Positions 1,283 through 54,637 of a DNA stretch of 64,000 bases are shown here, in pieces. Position 1 is the stretch's first letter. The number at the start of each line of letters is the position of its first letter. The notes beneath the pieces are model-generated. The model saw only the letters and a list, made by a program, of their open reading frames with translations, was not told the DNA's origin and did not search any database. The DNA is taken from positions 26,017 through 90,016 of the forward strand of contig VGID01000005.1 of NCBI GenBank assembly GCA_016868035.1, given 5' to 3'. Source of the DNA: Betaproteobacteria bacterium. Its GTDB lineage: Bacteria; Pseudomonadota; Gammaproteobacteria; Burkholderiales; SG8-41. The position numbers and the translations under genes are program-made.

Positions 1283-2338
1283 ATGACGTATATCGCCAAA
1301 CCCAAACTGCACCATCCGGCCCTGGTGAAGAACAAGGTCGGCTATACGCGCCGCGATTACGAGGGCAACATCTCGACGCTGTGCGCCGGCTGCGGCCACG
1401 ATTCGATCAGCGCCGCGATCATCCAGGCGTGCTGGGAGCTCGACATCGAGCCGCACAAGGTCGCCAAGCTCTCGGGCATCGGCTGCTCCTCGAAGACTCC
1501 GACCTATTTCCTCGGCAAGTCACACGGCTTCAACAGCGTGCACGGGCGCATGCCTTCGGTGCTCACGGGCGCGAACCTCGCGAACCGCGACCTCATCTAC
1601 ATGGGGGTGTCCGGAGACGGCGATTCCGCCTCGATCGGGCTCGGGCAGTTCGCCCACTGCATGCGGCGCGGAGTCAACATGGTCTACATCGTCGAGAACA
1701 ACGGCGTCTACGGGCTCACCAAGGGGCAGTTCTCGGCCACCGTGGACAAGGGCTCCAAGTCGAAGCGCGGCGTGGTCAACACCGACGAGCCGATCGACAT
1801 GATCGGGCTCGCGCTGCTGCTTGGCGCGACCTTCGTCGCGCGCAGCTTCTCTGGGGACAAGGCGCAGCTCGTGCCGCTGGTGAAGGCGGCGATCCAGCAC
1901 AAGGGCGCGGCATTCATCGACGTCATCTCACCGTGCGTTGCGTTCAACAATCACCCGGGCTCGACCAAGAGCTACGACTATCTGCGCGAGCACAACGAGG
2001 CGGTGAACCGACTCGACTTTATCGAAGCTCGCGAGGAAATCACGGCGGAGTACGAACCGGGATCGGTCGTGGAGGTGACGCAGCACGACGGCTCGATCGT
2101 GCGCCTGCGAAAGCTCGCGGCGGATTACGACCCCACGGATCGCATCAAGGTGATGACCTACCTGCAGGAACGCGCGGCCGCTGGCGAAGTGGTGACCGGT
2201 CTGCTCTACCTCGACCCCAAGGCCGACGACCTGCACGGGTATCTCGAAACTGCGGATACACCGCTCAACCGTCTGGGCGAGCGCGAGCTTTGCCCGGGGA
2301 GCGTGACGCTCGAGCGCATCAACGCTTCGCTGCGCTAG
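1283..2338 (+). CDS. korB: 2-oxoacid (2-oxoglutarate):ferredoxin oxidoreductase beta subunit (TPP-binding)
   Basis: 351-aa ORF with CAGCGHDSISAAIIQA and GVSGDGDSASIGLGQFAH (GDG TPP motif); adjacent to korA. Confidence 0.85.
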   Translation: MTYIAKPKLHHPALVKNKVGYTRRDYEGNISTLCAGCGHDSISAAIIQACWELDIEPHKVAKLSGIGCSSKTPTYFLGKSHGFNSVHGRMPSVLTGANLANRDLIYMGVSGDGDSASIGLGQFAHCMRRGVNMVYIVENNGVYGLTKGQFSATVDKGSKSKRGVVNTDEPIDMIGLALLLGATFVARSFSGDKAQLVPLVKAAIQHKGAAFIDVISPCVAFNNHPGSTKSYDYLREHNEAVNRLDFIEAREEITAEYEPGSVVEVTQHDGSIVRLRKLAADYDPTDRIKVMTYLQERAAAGEVVTGLLYLDPKADDLHGYLETADTPLNRLGERELCPGSVTLERINASLR

Positions 2339-2352
2339 CGCTGCGCGTCCAG

Positions 2353-2847
2353 CCGCGGCCTCTGATCGAATAGTCGCGATACGGAGAGATCACGCTGTCG
2401 GCTGCCTGCGCGCCTACCCGCTCCAGCCCGCGGCAGTCCGAGTCCGGCGCGCCCTACTTGGGTCGCATCCCCGCGCAAGCGCGAGGCCCCTGCTCCGCCC
2501 TCCGGCACCGCGGCCTCTGATCTATCATCGCGAGACTTCCACGCGGCCGTGTCGGCCGCCTGCGCGCCTGCGGGGTCGCATCCCCGCGCAAGCGCGAGGC
2601 CCCTGCTCCGCCCTCCGGCACCGCGGCCTCTGATCTATCATCGCGAGACTTCCACGCGGCCGTGTCGGCCGCCTGCGCGCCTGCGGGGTCGCATCCCCGC
2701 GCAAGCGCGAGGCCCCTGCTCCGCCCTCCGGCACCGCGGCCTCTGATCTATCATCGCGAGACTTCCACGCGGCCGTGTCGGCCGCCTGCGCGCCTGCGGG
2801 GTCGCATCCCCGCGCAAGCGCGAGGCCCCTGCTCCGCCCTCCGGCAC
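2353..2847. repeat. 113-bp tandem repeat: three identical full units (2461-2573, 2574-2686, 2687-2799), a 48-bp partial unit (2800-2847) and a degenerate leading copy (about 2353-2460)
   Basis: Units read directly. ORF-track entries 2525..2734 and 2638..2847 give identical 69-aa translations offset by exactly 113 nt. Each unit carries GC hairpins (GCGGGG-tcgcat-CCCCGC; CGCGC-aa-GCGCG). Confidence 0.9.
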
Positions 2848-5091: not shown

Positions 5092-6912
5092 ATGTCCACC
5101 GTCCGCACCGCCATCCGCATCACCGACCGCCGGCTTGATTTCGCGCAGGTGCTGGCCGACCTCGTCGAGGACGAACTGGTGGCGAAAGAGGTAGCCGATC
5201 AGCTCTGCCGGGACCGGCGCCTGTCGCGAAGCGAGACGCACCCCCTGGTCGTCATCGCCGACCAGAAGTGGAAGGACCCGCGCACTCCGGGCAAGCTGCT
5301 CAACCTCGAGACGCTCACCAAGTGGCTGGCAGAAAGGGTGAAGCTGCCCTACCTGCACATCGACCCGTTCAAGATCGATTTCGCAGCGGTCACCAAGGTG
5401 ATGTCGAGCGCCTACGCGGAGCGCTTCCGGATCCTGCCCGTCGGCGTCACGGCGAACGAGGCGACGATCGCCACCTGCGAGCCCTACGTGCGCGAATGGG
5501 AGGAGTCCCTCAAGCAGGTGCTGCGTCTCGACATCCGGCGCGTGATCGCGAACCCCCTCGACATCCAGGGCTACATCGTCGAGTTCTACAACCTCGCGCG
5601 CTCGGTCAAGGGCGCGACCGAGCAGGAGAAGGGCGCCTACAGCCAGATCGCCAATTTCGAGCAACTGGTGCAGCTCGGGCGCAGCGGCAAGCTCGACGCC
5701 AACGACCAGCACATCGTCCATATCTGCGACTGGTTGTTCAATTACGCATTCGAGCAGCGCGCAAGCGACATCCACCTCGAACCGAGGCGCGACGCGGGCA
5801 ACGTGCGCTTCCGCATCGACGGCGTGCTGCACCAGGTGTACCAGATCCCGACCCCGGTGATGGCCGCGATGACAAGCCGTATCAAGGTGCTGGGCCGCAT
5901 GGACGTGGTGGAGAAGCGCCGCCCGCAGGACGGGCGGCTGAAGACCGTAACGCCGCACAACGACGAGGTGGAGCTGCGGTTGTCCACGATGCCCACCGCG
6001 TTCGGCGAGAAGCTCGTCATGCGCGTCTTCAACCCCGACAACATGGTCAAGGACTACCGCGATCTCGGCTTCTCGGAGGACGACGAGCAGAAGTGGAACC
6101 ACATGGTGAACCAGCCCCACGGCATCATCCTGGTGACGGGGCCGACGGGCTCGGGCAAGACGACCACCCTCTATTCCACCCTCAAGCAGCTCGCTCTGCC
6201 GGACGTGAACGTATGCACCGTGGAGGATCCGATCGAGATGGTCGAGCCCTCCTTCAACCAGATGCAGGTGCAGGCATCGATCGGGGTGGATTTCGCGAGC
6301 GGCATACGCACCCTGCTGCGCCAGGATCCGGACATCATCATGGTGGGCGAGATCCGCGACCTGGAGACCGCCGAAATGGCCATCCGCGCGGCGCTGACCG
6401 GGCACCGGGTGCTGTCCACGCTGCACACCAACGACGCGCCCTCCGCGATCACGCGGCTGCTCGACATCGGCGTGCCGTACTATCTGCTGCAGTCCACCAT
6501 CCTGGGCGTCATGGCGCAGCGGCTGCTGCGCACCCTGTGCCGGCACTGCAAGACGCACCATAGCCTCGAGGAATCAGCCTGGGAGCACCTCACTACGCCG
6601 TGGAGAGCGCCCAAGCCCAAGGAAACCACCTGTGTCGCCAAGGGCTGCCTCGAGTGCCGCATGACGGGCTACATGGGCCGCATTGGCATCTACGAGACGA
6701 TGGTGCTGACGCCCGAGCTCAAGAAGGCAATCAGCGCGGAGACCGATCTCGCGGCGCTACAGGACAGGGCCTACAAGGAAGGCATGAAGCCGCTGCGCAT
6801 CAACGGCGCGATGAAGGTCGCGGCGGGGCTCACGACCATAGACGAGGTGATGAAGGTCGTTCCGCCGCCGCAGGGCGACCGGCGGCACCTGCCGCGCCGT
6901 ATCCATGAATAG
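5092..6912 (+). CDS. GspE/PilB-family secretion ATPase (type II secretion / type IV pilus-like) with N-terminal T2SSE_N-like region
   Basis: 606 aa with Walker A GPTGSGKTTTLYS, MVGEIRDLETA, and tetracysteine CRHC...CLEC followed by GYMGRIGIYE. Confidence 0.85.
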   Translation: MSTVRTAIRITDRRLDFAQVLADLVEDELVAKEVADQLCRDRRLSRSETHPLVVIADQKWKDPRTPGKLLNLETLTKWLAERVKLPYLHIDPFKIDFAAVTKVMSSAYAERFRILPVGVTANEATIATCEPYVREWEESLKQVLRLDIRRVIANPLDIQGYIVEFYNLARSVKGATEQEKGAYSQIANFEQLVQLGRSGKLDANDQHIVHICDWLFNYAFEQRASDIHLEPRRDAGNVRFRIDGVLHQVYQIPTPVMAAMTSRIKVLGRMDVVEKRRPQDGRLKTVTPHNDEVELRLSTMPTAFGEKLVMRVFNPDNMVKDYRDLGFSEDDEQKWNHMVNQPHGIILVTGPTGSGKTTTLYSTLKQLALPDVNVCTVEDPIEMVEPSFNQMQVQASIGVDFASGIRTLLRQDPDIIMVGEIRDLETAEMAIRAALTGHRVLSTLHTNDAPSAITRLLDIGVPYYLLQSTILGVMAQRLLRTLCRHCKTHHSLEESAWEHLTTPWRAPKPKETTCVAKGCLECRMTGYMGRIGIYETMVLTPELKKAISAETDLAALQDRAYKEGMKPLRINGAMKVAAGLTTIDEVMKVVPPPQGDRRHLPRRIHE

Positions 6913-25703: not shown

Positions 25704-26939
25704 ATGCTCAATCTGAAGCCGTCTGCCGCGTCGCGGAAGCTGGAGTTAACCCCGAGTTACGAGAGCCGCCACAAGGAAGCCGTTAAGAGCGCGACGACTC
25801 TCGCCGTGCCGGTGTTCGAGGCGGAGCTATGGACGAGCCGCCAGCGGCAGGCGAACTCGATCCACGAGATCTCCTACCGCGCGTGCTTCAAGCCCCAGCT
25901 GCCGGCGTACTTCATCGAGCGGCTGACCGCCGAAGGCGATGTCGTCTACGACCCTTTCAGCGGCCGCGGCACCACCACCGTGGAGGCCGCCCTGCACGGG
26001 CGCACGGTGATCACCAACGACACGAACCCGCTCTCGGCCATCCTCACGCGCCCGAGGCTCGAGCTGCCCTGCGTCGCGGAAGTGGACAAGCGGCTGCGGT
26101 CGCTGCGATTCGCGGCCAATGCCGCAAGCGGGATCGATCTGTCCATGTTCTTCCACCACAACACGCTCCACGAGATCCTCGGACTGCGGCGGTACCTGAA
26201 CCGCCGCCGCCGCGAGGGCGCGGAAGACAGCGTCGACCGCTGGATTCGCATGGTGGCGACGAGCCGCCTGACGGGCCATTCGCCCGGCTTCTTCTCGGTA
26301 TACACGCTGCCCCCGAACCAGGCGGTCTCGCCGGAAGACCAGATCCGCATCAACGCCAAGCTCGAGCAGCAGCCGCAGTACCGCGACGTCCGCGCGCTGA
26401 TCCTTCGCAAATCCATGCAGCTCCAGGCGGGCCTGACCGCCGCCGACCGCTGGCGCCTGCACGCGGCGGCCGAGCGCGCGCTGTTCCTCGAAAACGACGC
26501 CTCCGCGACGCCGGCGATTTCCACGAACAGCGTGCACCTGACGGTCACTTCGCCCCCGTTTCTCGACGTCGTGCAATACTCGCGCGATAACTGGCTGCGC
26601 TGCTGGTTCAACGGCTTTGACGCGGATACCGTGGGCAGCCGCATCACGATGGCGAAGACGCCCGAGGACTGGGCCATGGCGATGGCGCGGGTGCTGGCCG
26701 AGCTCTATCGCGTGACGCGGCCCGGAGGATGGCTCGCATTCGAGGTCGGAGAAGTGCGGCGCGGCACGGTAAGGCTCGAGGAGATCATCGCGCCGCTCGG
26801 TACGGATTCAGGATTCACCTGCGAGGCGATCCTCATCAACGCGCAGCGCTTCACCAAGACCGCCAACATCTGGGGCGTGGCGAACAACCGCCTCGGCACC
26901 AACTCGAACCGGATCGCGCTCTTCCGCAAGCCCCGCTGA
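25704..26939 (+). CDS. orphan DNA (N6-adenine or N4-cytosine) methyltransferase with AdoMet motif preceding the catalytic motif
   Basis: 411 aa from MLNLKPS (SD GGAGGG upstream). DPFSGRGTT lies at aa 83-91 and TSPPF at aa 282-286. The upstream 1.4 kb of ORF 24228..26939 is out-of-frame overlap with glcF. Confidence 0.7.
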   Translation: MLNLKPSAASRKLELTPSYESRHKEAVKSATTLAVPVFEAELWTSRQRQANSIHEISYRACFKPQLPAYFIERLTAEGDVVYDPFSGRGTTTVEAALHGRTVITNDTNPLSAILTRPRLELPCVAEVDKRLRSLRFAANAASGIDLSMFFHHNTLHEILGLRRYLNRRRREGAEDSVDRWIRMVATSRLTGHSPGFFSVYTLPPNQAVSPEDQIRINAKLEQQPQYRDVRALILRKSMQLQAGLTAADRWRLHAAAERALFLENDASATPAISTNSVHLTVTSPPFLDVVQYSRDNWLRCWFNGFDADTVGSRITMAKTPEDWAMAMARVLAELYRVTRPGGWLAFEVGEVRRGTVRLEEIIAPLGTDSGFTCEAILINAQRFTKTANIWGVANNRLGTNSNRIALFRKPR

Positions 26940-48148: not shown

Positions 48149-48961
48149 CTATGCCGCGCGCGCCGTCACCACCAGCGCGCGCCGGTCGGCGCGGAAGGGC
48201 CGGTCGCCGAATGTCCGCGCGAGCGTATTGGTCACCGCCTCGATCACCTCGTCGATCGAAATCCCGCGCTGCTCGATCTCCCGCCCGGCCGGCGTGCCCC
48301 GGATGATTCCCGTCGCATAGTCGCGCGCGGTGGGAGTGCTCGTCTTGATCGTCACGGGCTCGATCCCGGTCCGCTCGAAGCCCGCGTCGGCGAGAAGGCG
48401 CCGGATCAGGTCGCGGTCGTTGAACCCGAACGGGATCTTGAAGAACGCCGGCGGCTCGCCGCCGAGGAACGTGCAGATGGCGGCCTGTGCAACGCGGTTG
48501 CACTCGTTTCCCTCCAGCCCGTCCCACACGTTGAACACGAACCGGCCGCCGGCGGAGAGCACGCGGCGCGTTTCGCGGAAGACCGCGGACTTGTCCGGCA
48601 CGAACATCACGCCGAACCCGCAGGCGACGGCGGCGAAAGACGACGCCTCGAAAGGAAGCGCCGTTGCGTCTGCCTTCTGCCACACGATGGAGTCGTCGGA
48701 CAGCTTCGCGCGCGCGTAATCGAGCATCTCCTGGCTCAGGTCGGTCGCGACGAGGCGCACGGGCGGCGGGAGCTTCGAGCGCAACCGCCTGGTGACGATG
48801 CCCGTGCCGCACGCGGTTTCGAGCACCGCGCCCTGAGGGCGGGCGCCTGCAACGCGGTTCGCCAGGTCATCGGCAAAAGGCTCGAAGTGCGCCGGCCCGA
48901 GGTAGCGGTCGTAGTTCTCGGGAATCGATCCCGTGAAGCTCGCGAGTTGGTTATCGGCCAT
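48149..48961 (-). CDS. class I SAM-dependent methyltransferase
   Basis: VLETACGTGIVTRRL motif I and FRETRRVLSAGGRFVF. Confidence 0.8.
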   Translation of the reverse strand: MADNQLASFTGSIPENYDRYLGPAHFEPFADDLANRVAGARPQGAVLETACGTGIVTRRLRSKLPPPVRLVATDLSQEMLDYARAKLSDDSIVWQKADATALPFEASSFAAVACGFGVMFVPDKSAVFRETRRVLSAGGRFVFNVWDGLEGNECNRVAQAAICTFLGGEPPAFFKIPFGFNDRDLIRRLLADAGFERTGIEPVTIKTSTPTARDYATGIIRGTPAGREIEQRGISIDEVIEAVTNTLARTFGDRPFRADRRALVVTARAA

Positions 48962-49005: not shown

Positions 49006-49263
49006 CTACTTTACCCCCAGCTCCTCGAGCGCGCCGACCACCAAATGCCGCGCCCGGCCCGCGGACACGACGATCCCGATTGCCATCGCCTCCTTGATTT
49101 CGGCGGGAGTGGCGCCGGCCTCCTTCGCACCTGCGAAGGCACGGCGAAGTCAGGTAGGGCAGCCCGCCGCCACGGCGCTCCCCGCCTGGACCAGCCGGCG
49201 GATTTTTTCGTCCAGCACTTCCTCGTATTCGAAGTTCACCTGAAACTTTTTCTGGGCCGCCAT
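49006..49263 (-). CDS. AhpD/carboxymuconolactone-decarboxylase-family redox protein with in-frame TGA (49152-49150) at the second Cys position of CPxC; candidate selenoprotein (or nonsense pseudogene)
   Basis: SD AAGGGGGA precedes ATG 49263. Read through the TGA, the translation is MAAQKKFQVNFEYEEVLDEKIRRLVQAGSAVAAGCPT[TGA]LRRAFAGAKEAGATPAEIKEAMAIGIVVSAGRARHLVVGALEELGVK. The frame stays open for 47 more codons with CMD-like sequence. Confidence 0.5.
49122..49139 (-). other. candidate bacterial SECIS-like hairpin
   Basis: On the minus strand, 10 nt after the TGA: CCTTCGC-AGGT-GCGAAGG, a perfect 7-bp stem with a 4-nt loop containing GU. Confidence 0.45.
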
Positions 49264-49368
49264 GATTCCCCCTTTCGGATTGGTTGATGCTCGTGACGCC
49301 GCGACTGGCGCCGGCCCGGCAAGCCTGCCCGAACCGAACCGCCCGCCGTCACCCCTCCGCACCCCTTG

Positions 49369-49704
49369 CTAGGTAAGCGGCACGAAGTCGTACTCGCCCA
49401 GGCCCTGGAGCACGAGGAATGTCGCCGAGGTCCTTCCGCCGTTGGTGACGAGATGCGGGCGCCGCGGCGGCACCGAATACGTGTCTCCGGGGCCAAGCTC
49501 GACCTCTTCCTTGGGCTCGCGCAGGAAAATTCTGAGCCGCCCGTTCAGCACGTAGAACGTGTCCTGGATGTTGTTGTGGTAGTGCCACGGCACCTTCTGT
49601 GTCGCGGAGATCTGGAGCTCGGTGATGCGAAAGCCCGGCCGCGCGGCGTGCTCCGCCCGTCGCTCGACCTCATACAGCGGCGCACCCGATTTCAACGCTT
49701 CCAT
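49369..49704 (-). CDS. cupin-domain protein
   Basis: VPWHYHNNIQDTFYVLNGRL...PHLVTN; paralog of 54293..54637. Confidence 0.7.
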   Translation of the reverse strand: MEALKSGAPLYEVERRAEHAARPGFRITELQISATQKVPWHYHNNIQDTFYVLNGRLRIFLREPKEEVELGPGDTYSVPPRRPHLVTNGGRTSATFLVLQGLGEYDFVPLT

Positions 49705-49761
49705 GACGTGCTCCGATTCGAAGGCGTTCGACTCCGGCCGTCTCGATCCCCGGCGCGCCGC

Positions 49762-50736
49762 TCATTCGGCGCGAATGTTCGCGAGCTGGACCACCTTGGT
49801 CCACTGCTCGCGCTCGTTCCTGAGGTGCGCCGCGAATTCCCGCGGCGAGCTCGCCACGCCCTCGGTGCCGTCGAGCGCCAGCCGCTTCACGACCTCCAGC
49901 TGTTTCACCGCCGCGGCAATCTCCTGGTACAGGCGCTCGATCACGCCCTGCGGAGTGCCACGCGGGGCAAGCATGCCGTGCCACTGGGTGACGATGTATC
50001 CCGGCACGCCCGACTCGATCATCGTCGGCAGATCGGGCGCGATTTTCGCGCGCGTGGCGCTTGCAATGGCGATCGGCTTCAACTTCCCGACCCGCACCTG
50101 GCTGTACACCGAGCCCATGCTGAGAAAGCTCATGTGTATGCGCCCCGCCAACATGTCGGGAAGCGCGGCGCCGACTCCCTTGTACGGGACGTGGACGAGC
50201 TCGATTCCCGTGGAAATCCGGAACAGCTCCGTCGCCAGATGCGCCAGCGACGCGTTGCCCGTCGAGGAATAGTTGAGCTTGGTGGGCACGGACTTTGCGT
50301 ACGCGATGAGCTCCTTCACCGTCGTCGCGGGAAGCCCTGGATACACGGTGAGGATGTACGGCGCGGCGGCGGCCTGGGTAACCGGGGCAAAGTCCCGGTA
50401 GAGGTCATAGCGGGTCTTGCTGACGATGCCGTACACGACCAGGCTCGCGCTGAGGAACATCACGGTATAGCCGTCCGGGGCCGCCTGCGCCGCGAGCTCC
50501 GCGGCAATGCTCCCGCTCGCTCCTGCCCGGTTGTCCACGACCACGGTCTGTCCCACGGCCTCGCTCATGGGACCCGCGACCTGGCGCGCGACGAAATCGA
50601 GCCCCGCGCCCGAGGCGACGATCAATCTGATCGCCTTGGTCGGGTATGTCGCCGGTTGCGCGCCAGCGTGCGGCGCGAGAAGAACGAGCACCGCGGTTAG
50701 CGCCGCGATGACCCCGGCCGGCGTTCTTTCTTTCAT
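49762..50736 (-). CDS. Bug-family substrate-binding protein
   Basis: Signal peptide, then YPTKAIRLIVASGAG...; about 324 aa from MKERTPAG. Confidence 0.9.
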   Translation of the reverse strand: MKERTPAGVIAALTAVLVLLAPHAGAQPATYPTKAIRLIVASGAGLDFVARQVAGPMSEAVGQTVVVDNRAGASGSIAAELAAQAAPDGYTVMFLSASLVVYGIVSKTRYDLYRDFAPVTQAAAAPYILTVYPGLPATTVKELIAYAKSVPTKLNYSSTGNASLAHLATELFRISTGIELVHVPYKGVGAALPDMLAGRIHMSFLSMGSVYSQVRVGKLKPIAIASATRAKIAPDLPTMIESGVPGYIVTQWHGMLAPRGTPQGVIERLYQEIAAAVKQLEVVKRLALDGTEGVASSPREFAAHLRNEREQWTKVVQLANIRAE

Positions 50737-50853
50737 CACAAACCCTCCCCGATTCCCGTTACGCATCGCCTTGCGGGCGCGCCGCGGGAGTCAGCTCAAT
50801 CCGACTCCTTCCCTTTCATTTTCCGCAACCCGCGTGCCAGCCCGCGCAAAGAC

Positions 50854-53206: not shown

Positions 53207-54178
53207 TCACTCGAGCTTGAGGCCTGTCTCCTGCGCCACCCTCTTCCACTTCGCCAGGTCTTCGCGGATGAAGCTCGCGAGCTCCTCGCTCGAACTCGGG
53301 CGTAGCTCGACGCCGAGCGCCCGGAAGCGCTCGATCACGGCCGGCATGCTCAAGGCCTTGACCAGCGCCGCGTTGAGGCGCCGCACGATGTCCGGCGGCG
53401 TCGCCGCCGGCGCGAGCACACCGTTTACCGTGCTCGCATCGAAGCCAGGCAATCCGGACTCGGCAAGAGTCGGCAGATCGGGCAGCAACGCGGCCCGGCG
53501 CGCCGTGGTGACGGCGACGGCGCGCAGCCGGTTCGACTTGATGTGCTCGATCGACGAGGAAATCTGGTCAACGCGCGCGTCCACGTGCCCGCCCAGCAGG
53601 TCGACCAGCGCGGGACCCGCTCCCTTGTACGGAACGATCAGCAGCTTCACTCCGGCGGTGATCGCGAACAGTTCCGCGATCAGGTGGCTCGTCGTGCCCT
53701 GGCCGCCGGTCGCCATCCGTATGTCGGCCGGCCGTGCCTTGGCAAGAGCGATGAACTGCTTCGCGGTCCTGGCGGGCACGGTAGGGTGCACCACGATCAC
53801 CAGCGGCAGCTCGCCGACGCGCCCGACCGGCACGAAGTCCTTGAGGATGTCGTAGCGCAGCTTCGCATAGGCCGCCGGCGCGTTGGTCATCACGCTGCTC
53901 GAAGCCATCATCAGCGTGTACCCGTCGGGCGCGGACTTTGCCACCGCTTCGGCGCCGATCTGCCCGCCCGCGCCGGCGCGGTTCTCCACGATCACCTGCT
54001 GGCCCAGGGCCTCGCCCAGCTCCGGGGCGATGCCGCGCGCCGCGATGTCATTGGTGCCGCCCGGCGCGAACGGCACGACGAGACGCACCGGCTTCGACGG
54101 GAACCCCTGTGCGAGCGCGATCGAAGCGAGCAGGCCCAGCCAGATGAAAACCCCCACCTGTCCCAGTGCGCGCATCAT
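53207..54178 (-). CDS. Bug-family substrate-binding protein
   Basis: Signal peptide, then FPSKPVRLVVPFAPGGTNDIAAR. Confidence 0.9.
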   Translation of the reverse strand: MMRALGQVGVFIWLGLLASIALAQGFPSKPVRLVVPFAPGGTNDIAARGIAPELGEALGQQVIVENRAGAGGQIGAEAVAKSAPDGYTLMMASSSVMTNAPAAYAKLRYDILKDFVPVGRVGELPLVIVVHPTVPARTAKQFIALAKARPADIRMATGGQGTTSHLIAELFAITAGVKLLIVPYKGAGPALVDLLGGHVDARVDQISSSIEHIKSNRLRAVAVTTARRAALLPDLPTLAESGLPGFDASTVNGVLAPAATPPDIVRRLNAALVKALSMPAVIERFRALGVELRPSSSEELASFIREDLAKWKRVAQETGLKLE

Positions 54179-54292
54179 GAAAATCCTCCTGCCAACAAGT
54201 TTGTCAGAGCCGATGGCCGGCGCCGCCAATACACGATCAATTCACCGAAATGCTTGTTGTTCTGGCGGGACGCGAACTGACCCGATTTTTCC

Positions 54293-54637
54293 CTATCCTT
54301 CCCATGTCTTGGGGTCCACCGGGTGCCGGTCGTATCTGCCCACGCCCTGGACGAGCACGAAGCGGCACGGGCGGTCGCCGTGGGGCGTGACCTGATGGGG
54401 TCGCTTGGTCCGGACGACATGGCTCTGGCCTACGGCAAGCAAGACGCGCTCGGGCGGGTCGAGCATCTCGATCTGGACCGTGCCTTCGATGCAGTAGGTC
54501 GTGTCGGTGATGGTCGTGTGGTAGTGCCAAGGAATGACCTCGCCCGGCGCGAGCGTGCGCTCCTGCACCAAAACGTCGGGACTCCTGGCAATCCAGTTGA
54601 TCTTGCCGGCACGGACGTAATTGAGTTCGACGGACAT
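54293..54637 (-). CDS. cupin-domain protein
   Basis: IPWHYHTTITDTTYCIEGTV...PHQVTP. The start is ambiguous (54637 to 54664). Confidence 0.65.
   Translation of the reverse strand: MSVELNYVRAGKINWIARSPDVLVQERTLAPGEVIPWHYHTTITDTTYCIEGTVQIEMLDPPERVLLAVGQSHVVRTKRPHQVTPHGDRPCRFVLVQGVGRYDRHPVDPKTWEG

Follow-up and report, generated by a model that had tools for sequence, protein, structure and literature searches.

In the 64,000-nt stretch of contig VGID01000005.1 analysed here (positions 26,017 to 90,016; GenBank assembly GCA_016868035.1, Betaproteobacteria bacterium; hereafter the window), a small gene on the minus strand carries an in-frame TGA in a C-P-T-(TGA) motif at which its Cys-type homologues show CPTC. 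Is this a gene broken by a nonsense mutation, or is the UGA decoded as selenocysteine (Sec)? A first-pass annotation of the sequence had proposed a selenoprotein. Our comparative analysis indicates that the locus is very probably one intact gene that encodes a genuine Sec-containing protein of 85 residues, a small AhpD-like protein of the GSU3128 family.

Direct reading of the window DNA gave the same gene layout as described before. The ATG (49263-49261, minus strand) lies 4 nt behind the Shine-Dalgarno-like sequence AGGGGG, which bears out the good ribosome-binding site of the first-pass annotation. It opens 37 codons, MAAQKKFQVNFEYEEVLDEKIRRLVQAGSAVAAGCPT (ending in AAGCPT), that run to the TGA at 49152-49150; the frame then stays open for 47 more codons, LRRAFAGAKEAGATPAEIKEAMAIGIVVSAGRARHLVVGALEELGVK, up to the TAG at 49008-49006. 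The GC content at third codon positions (GC3) is 0.81 both 5' and 3' of the TGA, and homologues align with the 85-residue product across its full length. All public copies of the window gene are annotated as a 37-residue fragment, the truncation expected of automated gene calling.

At least 16 divergent homologous genes from other organisms, read at the DNA level, have a TGA at the corresponding codon (named loci: L001, L002, L009-L013, L015, L017-L019, L035 and L037-L039). A word-indexed search yielded nine Cys-type homologues of full length (CPTC) and two unusual entries, P0004 and P0012. P0004 is stored with "CPTW", yet its DNA (L001, 4319-4570) has TGA, and P0012 ends after "CPA" at a TGA behind which the frame is open and conserved. 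The three matches in GTDB reference genomes all have TGA at this codon; they come from a Burkholderiales metagenome-assembled genome (MAG), Betaproteobacteria SG8_41 and a contig binned as Streptomycetaceae. A metagenome scan contributed eight further TGA forms and six TGC forms. When 1.84 billion cluster representatives were searched exhaustively with HMMER, a single close cluster of full-length Cys-type proteins emerged, together with about 20 clusters (50% identity) of short gene calls stopping at ...GCP(T/A/D/V). The DNA of four short-call clusters shows TGA and then 45-50 additional conserved codons. About 20 further database protein clusters thus represent the same kind of truncation as the window gene, and these truncated calls imply that the family is much more widespread, and more often of Sec type, than the protein databases suggest. 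The Trp in P0004 is another database mis-record: a JGI gene call put Trp at the in-frame TGA of L001, and the resulting protein entry is full-length but incorrect.

Among the Sec-type genes the ratio of nonsynonymous to synonymous differences per site (pN/pS) is 0.22 downstream of the TGA (pS 0.56) vs 0.14 upstream, with synonymous sites near saturation (pS 0.56-0.63). Purifying selection acts on the codons downstream of the TGA. Six independent assemblies, which represent at least five samples, carry the window gene and 40 nt of its leader without a single difference; their flanking DNA differs from the window by up to 24 single-nucleotide polymorphisms (SNPs).

Domain, fold and family of the product

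With Cys substituted for the TGA, amino acids 14-75 of the product match the Pfam carboxymuconolactone decarboxylase (CMD) domain (PF02627) across the TGA, at 45.4 bits against a gathering threshold of 23 (E = 8e-12). Each half of the product on its own scores below this threshold. Searching the PDB with a family profile matched 7y4r, 3bey and 5dik, and the C-P-T-(TGA) motif falls exactly on their C-x-x-C. Both the CMD/AhpD assignment and the placing of the TGA at the second redox Cys in the first-pass annotation are supported by these alignments. So is its remark that the usual His is replaced by Ala: four residues beyond the second Cys, the window protein has Ala42 and the three solved CMD proteins have His. 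The His of CxxCxxxH, the proton-relay residue of AhpD, is missing from the whole family, in Sec and Cys types alike. Its absence sets the GSU3128 family mechanistically apart from classical AhpD. The structure model used is of P0001, a Cys-type proxy with 69% sequence identity to the window protein. This AlphaFold2 model (mean predicted local distance difference test score 72) has four helices with the redox motif at the N-terminus of helix 2. In a Foldseek comparison of the P0001 model with the PDB, the top matches were all CMD/AhpD structures, with template modelling scores of 0.6-0.7.

The best specific model for the window protein is NCBIfam NF041047, "GSU3128 family (seleno)protein", which covers positions 1-83 of 84 with 98.5 bits (E = 1.8e-28, U scored as C). 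TIGR00778 (ahpD_dom) gives it just 17.7 bits. The NF041047 scores form a continuum, from 151-165 in L035 and L037-L039 through 122 in L012 and 104-105 in L001 and L011 to 98.5 in the window. By these profile scores the window protein is a peripheral member of NF041047, just under the equivalog (trusted) cut-off of 110 at which NCBI applies the name, and the sub-threshold score is in part the reason that the gene stays unannotated. NF041047 appears as "Distant alkylhydroperoxidase (AhpD) homolog", a CxxU family, among the high-confidence predicted families of a 2026 review (PMC13188914); the same review credits the family to Kryukov & Gladyshev 2004. Earlier surveys placed the family in Geobacter only and recorded it in Geobacter sulfurreducens and G. 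uraniumreducens (GSU3128, "distant AhpD homolog"; PMC1794560). The first-pass annotation had stated in general terms that AhpD-like proteins are among the reported bacterial selenoprotein families; NF041047, matched here end to end, was not known to it. The selenoprotein family is therefore already known, and the window gene is a new member at its periphery.

The window protein has the same length as NF041047 members (84-85 aa), matches the hidden Markov model from end to end and carries C-P-x-U at the same position. The members above the cut-off (L035, L037-L039 and L012) also share its CUUCGC/GCGAAG hairpin and the distance of that hairpin from the UGA. The window protein differs in having RRLxQAG...LRRAFAGAK where the family has RELIRVG...LKKHFAxAK, and its nearest relatives are in Burkholderiales/Betaproteobacteria MAGs. 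With Mycobacterium tuberculosis AhpD and small CMD structures (1knc/1gu9, 7y4r, 3bey, 5dik and 1vke) it has in common the predicted all-alpha CMD fold and a CxxC-type redox motif at a helix N-terminus, aligned residue for residue. The differences are the predicted Sec in place of the second Cys and the Ala in place of the His. Compared with AhpD, the window protein is a single 85-aa domain instead of about 175 aa, and no AhpC partner gene is found nearby. AhpD-like 1 (COG2128/TIGR01926), AhpD-like 2/CMD-like (PF02627) and NF041238 likewise have a CxxU motif in a CMD/AhpD domain and were predicted from Sec/Cys pairs (PMC2398784, PMC13188914), but they are other subfamilies. Such pairs are identified by a TGA aligned with Cys, TGA homologues elsewhere and coding conservation downstream (PMC13188914). 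The window gene shows all three: its TGA aligns with Cys, TGA homologues occur in other organisms, and the downstream codons are conserved.

The hairpin downstream of the UGA

Ten nt past the UGA lies the perfect hairpin that the first-pass annotation had pointed out. CCUUCGC (49139-49133) and GCGAAGG (49128-49122) form seven of seven Watson-Crick pairs around the loop AGGU (49132-49129), with a folding energy of -10.4 kcal/mol. The UGA-to-loop spacing is 17 nt, and the G-G-U of the loop occupies positions 19-21 after the UGA. The published model of the bacterial selenocysteine insertion sequence (bSECIS; PMC13188914, Fig. 2) has a loop of 3-9 nt, an upper stem of 4-16 bp, a G in the first two loop positions, a UGA-loop distance of 16-37 nt and a minimum free energy (MFE) at or below -7.5 kcal/mol. 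The window hairpin, with its 4-nt loop and 7-bp stem, lies within all of these limits, G placement, spacing and energy included. Like the SECIS of Escherichia coli fdhF (NC_000913.3), it is situated within the coding sequence, starts 10-11 nt past the UGA and presents G-G-U of the tetraloop at positions 19-21. It differs from the fdhF element in stem sequence and in having neither a bulged U in the upper stem nor an obvious extended lower stem. By analogy, the window hairpin would be bound by SelB; at 18 nt it provides a clean, compact candidate SECIS for the GSU3128 family.

A CUUCGC/GCGAAG-based stem is present in all 16 Sec-type genes, with the loop (AGGU, AGGC, GGUC, GGGC, GGCC or GUUC) beginning 17 nt past the UGA. 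The stem is retained under differing peptide sequence (HFAxAK vs AFAGAK). Across the alignment 93.5-94.5% of cells are paired, vs 40-66% when the partners are slid. Changes in the stem are either wobble-compatible (U-A to U-G, C-G to U-G) or compensatory. Two compensatory pairs were seen only after L031/L032 and distant members joined the set: C-G to U-A in L031/L032, where both sides are synonymous, and C-G to A-U in L035. There are no double-sided changes among the 11 closest Sec-type genes. The mean entropy at four-fold degenerate sites of Sec-type genes is 0.36 bits over the first ten codons past the UGA (+1 to +10) vs 1.40 elsewhere; Cys-type genes show no such contrast (0.87 vs 0.71). 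Judged by these comparisons, the hairpin is conserved as RNA in the Sec-type genes beyond what the protein needs.

Alignment of Sec- and Cys-type homologues, a check suggested by the first-pass annotation, showed that, of nine Cys-type genes read at the DNA level, seven no longer have the stem (3-5 of 7 pairs remain). The other two (L031, 237-494, and L032, 856-1113) have TGC and retain the hairpin with seven of seven pairs. In a neighbour-joining tree, built on 85 residues and without support values, a single Cys clade is nested among the Sec-type sequences, of which the window protein lies closest to it, and within this clade L031 and L032 form a subclade with L033. The tree fits replacement of Sec by Cys followed by decay of the SECIS, and the hairpin of L031/L032 looks like a "fossil" SECIS.

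A second, stronger hairpin of 8 bp (GGAGGUCG-GUG-CGACCUCC) was observed in one Sec-type subclade (L009 ~6138-6156, L013, L015, L017-L019 and L024). Its loop is 34 nt past the UGA, a distance that the bSECIS model also allows. An A.C mismatch weakens the first hairpin of L009 and L015 (-5.0 kcal/mol), and either hairpin may be the SECIS there. L024 (326-578) is a Sec-type copy whose hairpin contains an indel, so that the frame shifts immediately behind the TGA; decay of the copy or an assembly error may account for it. In the window, an alternative MFE pairing with the CUUCGC directly after the UGA was dropped as a conserved structure: that arm reads CUGCGY in relatives.

Decoding of the UGA and alternative readings

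In the mechanism proposed here, UGA codon 38 would be decoded by Sec-tRNA(Sec), which SelB would bring after binding the in-frame hairpin 10 nt downstream as a bacterial SECIS. The product would be a four-helix CMD/AhpD-like domain with Cys35-Pro-Thr-Sec38 at the start of helix 2. The Sec38 selenolate would attack an oxidised substrate, e.g., a peroxide, sulfenate or disulfide, and Cys35 would then resolve the adduct by forming a selenenylsulfide, from which a cellular reductant would regenerate the protein. In M. tuberculosis AhpD the second Cys of the CxxC motif is the attacking nucleophile, and the role given to Sec38 follows from this analogy. Most likely, the product acts as a small thiol/selenol CxxU oxidoreductase. 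The claim of the first-pass annotation that UGA is read as Sec, giving an 85-aa CxxU protein, draws its support from the conserved TGA, the purifying selection downstream and the conserved hairpin.

Several results weigh against Sec decoding. The NF041047 score falls short of the cut-off. A tblastn search with E. coli SelA, SelB, SelD and FdhF detected no selA, selB, selD or fdhF-like gene in the window and related loci (237 kb); the positive control worked, and 237 kb says nothing either way for a multi-megabase genome. ARAGORN found no tRNA, and so no tRNA-Sec, in the 64-kb window or any related locus. A GC3-based scan of the window revealed no second TGA-interrupted gene; all that it picked up were antisense frames and neighbouring genes in the same frame. 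Taken as a single sequence, the hairpin is within what chance could produce. The bSECIS model is permissive: among the 1579 TGA triplets of the window (65.6% GC), 11.8% have a compliant hairpin at or below -7.5 kcal/mol and 5.0% at or below -10 kcal/mol, and the z-score of the 71-nt fold is just -1.39. Of the SECIS-model check suggested earlier, agreement with the published bSECIS limits stood, and the covariance part gave nothing: no Rfam family matches the hairpin, either in the whole window at gathering thresholds or in a permissive E-value scan of 49050-49200, which returned noise only. The hairpin carries weight because of the comparative evidence and not because of single-sequence statistics. 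Here too the covariation is thin: both sides of a pair have changed in two cases, each of which probably goes back to one event, and the remainder is sequence conservation and wobble.

The alternative that survives best is a read-through of the UGA without Sec, in which a near-cognate Trp or Cys tRNA or a suppressor tRNA would decode it in a host devoid of Sec machinery and the hairpin would serve as a generic stimulator. We consider this very improbable. It would agree with the lack of Sec genes in the 237 kb, and one public pipeline did place Trp at the homologous TGA of L001 (P0004); the position, however, is the catalytic Cys of CxxC, where Trp would be non-functional. The two Cys-type genes that retain the hairpin indicate that it is not strictly tied to a UGA, but on the tree they look like recent Sec-to-Cys converts. 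The hairpin agrees with the SECIS model of SelB type and has its G-G-U in register with fdhF, and curation places the family among the selenoproteins. Neighbouring genes terminate normally at TGA: two TctC genes of this cluster use TGA as an ordinary stop codon, so TGA is not reassigned genome-wide.

The first-pass annotation had named a TGC/TGT-to-TGA nonsense mutation as the alternative to Sec, with a Cys-type AhpD-like gene as the ancestor and the downstream frame as a remnant. Close Cys-type homologues do exist, and the frameshifted locus L024 shows that decay happens in this family. In the window gene, by contrast, the frame is intact up to the conserved C-terminus and the hairpin is perfect. 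The TGA common to at least 16 divergent genes (pS about 0.6), the purifying selection downstream (pN/pS 0.22) and the identity of the gene in six assemblies, despite up to 24 flanking SNPs, together exclude pseudogene and artefact explanations, and we hold a nonsense mutation to be extremely unlikely. Equally hard to credit is a pair of small proteins (37 aa, and 43 aa from GTG 49142) or a functional 37-aa form with the rest untranslated: both pieces are present in open reading frame lists and C-terminal halves are stored as separate database calls (P0030, P0151), but each half is just part of one four-helix CMD domain, the Cys-type homologues are single 85-aa chains, the second half has no conserved Shine-Dalgarno sequence or start codon, and GTG 49142 is the last spacer codon, of CAA/AAC/AAT type in relatives.

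Sec decoding of UGA-38 in one intact gene is thus the reading that we prefer. Bacteria of the Burkholderiales-like group were once thought to use Sec just in formate dehydrogenase (PMC1794560). The window gene would add a selenoprotein other than formate dehydrogenase to a freshwater, probably Burkholderiales-like organism, which is a modest taxonomic and ecological extension. The find is sound but ordinary and does not overturn current understanding; its value lies in annotation repair, in this extension and in the association with a methyltransferase.

Methyltransferase association and neighbouring genes

The features of the locus and the methyltransferase genes near its homologues are collected in Table 1. 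The cupin, Bug binding protein and S-adenosylmethionine (SAM) methyltransferase named as same-strand neighbours in the first-pass annotation were all recovered by Pfam. The methyltransferase gene is probably co-transcribed with the AhpD-like gene and is possibly its functional partner.

Table 1. Coordinates of the AhpD-like gene, its sequence elements and neighbours in the window, and of methyltransferase genes near AhpD-like genes at related loci
Feature	Sequence	Coordinates	Strand	Remarks
Predicted selenoprotein gene, 85 codons + stop; small CMD/AhpD-like product of the GSU3128 ("distant AhpD homolog") family	window	49006..49263	(-)	Product MAAQKKFQVNFEYEEVLDEKIRRLVQAGSAVAAGCPT-U-LRRAFAGAKEAGATPAEIKEAMAIGIVVSAGRARHLVVGALEELGVK
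Shine-Dalgarno-like AGGGGG	window	49268..49273	(-)	4 nt 5' of ATG; direct reading; N-terminus lines up with homologue starts
TGC, Cys35, first residue of the C-P-T-U redox motif	window	49159..49161	(-)	Invariant across all homologues
In-frame TGA, codon 38, predicted to be read as Sec	window	49150..49152	(-)	Matches second Cys of CxxC
Candidate bacterial SECIS hairpin CCUUCGC-AGGU-GCGAAGG	window	49122..49139	(-)	Begins 10 nt past UGA
Class-I SAM methyltransferase gene, 270 aa	window	48149..48961	(-)	44 nt downstream, same strand; Pfam Methyltransf_11/25 and UbiE
Cupin_2 gene, 111 aa	window	49369..49704	(-)	Immediately upstream, same strand; Pfam
TctC/Bug periplasmic binding protein gene	window	49762..50766	(-)	Upstream, same strand; ordinary TGA stop; Pfam
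Methyltransferase gene	L015	972-1787		Downstream of AhpD-like gene, as in the window
Methyltransferase gene	L012	2248-3072		Downstream of AhpD-like gene, as in the window
Methyltransferase gene	L002	20-859		Upstream of AhpD-like gene, collinear with fusions
Methyltransferase gene	L010	1050-1889		Upstream of AhpD-like gene, collinear with fusions
Methyltransferase gene	L026	1108-1932		Upstream of AhpD-like gene, collinear with fusions
Methyltransferase gene	L033/L034	701-1312 (L033)		Overlaps Cys-type AhpD-like gene
Methyltransferase gene	L022	~2119-2457		Beside AhpD-like gene

The second and third best NCBIfam matches of the window protein are to the AhpD domains of ArsM_AhpD_UU (NF041537, 48.7 bits) and MduS (NF045649, 47.5 bits). 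These scores are far below the cut-offs of the fusion selenoproteins (510 for NF041537 and 380 for NF045649), and only the AhpD domain is matched. As in the two fusions, a SAM methyltransferase adjoins the AhpD-like protein, here as a neighbouring gene in the window and in at least seven other loci. The window arrangement differs from MduS and ArsM_AhpD_UU in having two separate genes, with AhpD preceding the methyltransferase and not following it as in the fusions; in addition, the window methyltransferase matches the generic SAM-binding core only and is without Sec. The adjoining methyltransferases, all of class I, are only about 35% identical to each other, over the SAM-binding core. Adjacency is not universal, L001, L009, L011, L035 and L037-L039 being without a methyltransferase neighbour. 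The fusions together with the recurrent adjacency suggest that the CxxU protein may serve the methyltransferase as a reductant or substrate carrier, and the recurrent pairing offers a testable handle on the function of the GSU3128 family.

A wider joint reading is tentative, and we think it rather less probable than its opposite. It holds that the two-gene AhpD-methyltransferase module is a split counterpart of MduS and ArsM/AhpD that has spread to aerobic freshwater Burkholderiales-like bacteria, with L031/L032 as snapshots of Sec-to-Cys replacement. If this were true, the methyltransferase would receive its substrate, a thiol or a chalcogen or metalloid (e.g., As, Se or Te species), from the selenol/thiol pair of the module, which would reduce, carry or present it.

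The L010 contig (CAYYZZ010000228.1, 4.7 kb) is binned as "uncultured Streptomycetaceae", a label that may be a binning error. It shares the methyltransferase-AhpD(Sec) arrangement with L002 and L026, and the methyltransferase is 80% identical.

The TctC-cupin gene pair is duplicated inside 5 kb of the window (49369-50766 and 53207-54589, both on the minus strand), with 36% identity between the cupins. At least four TctC/Bug genes are present in about 12 kb, which is typical of Burkholderiales-like genomes. The sole Rfam match in the window is a chrB-a RNA motif (RF03078; 41933-42015, minus strand; 59.6 bits, gathering threshold 43.9), which sits upstream of a rhodanese/ChrB_C gene that is followed by a TauE-family gene.

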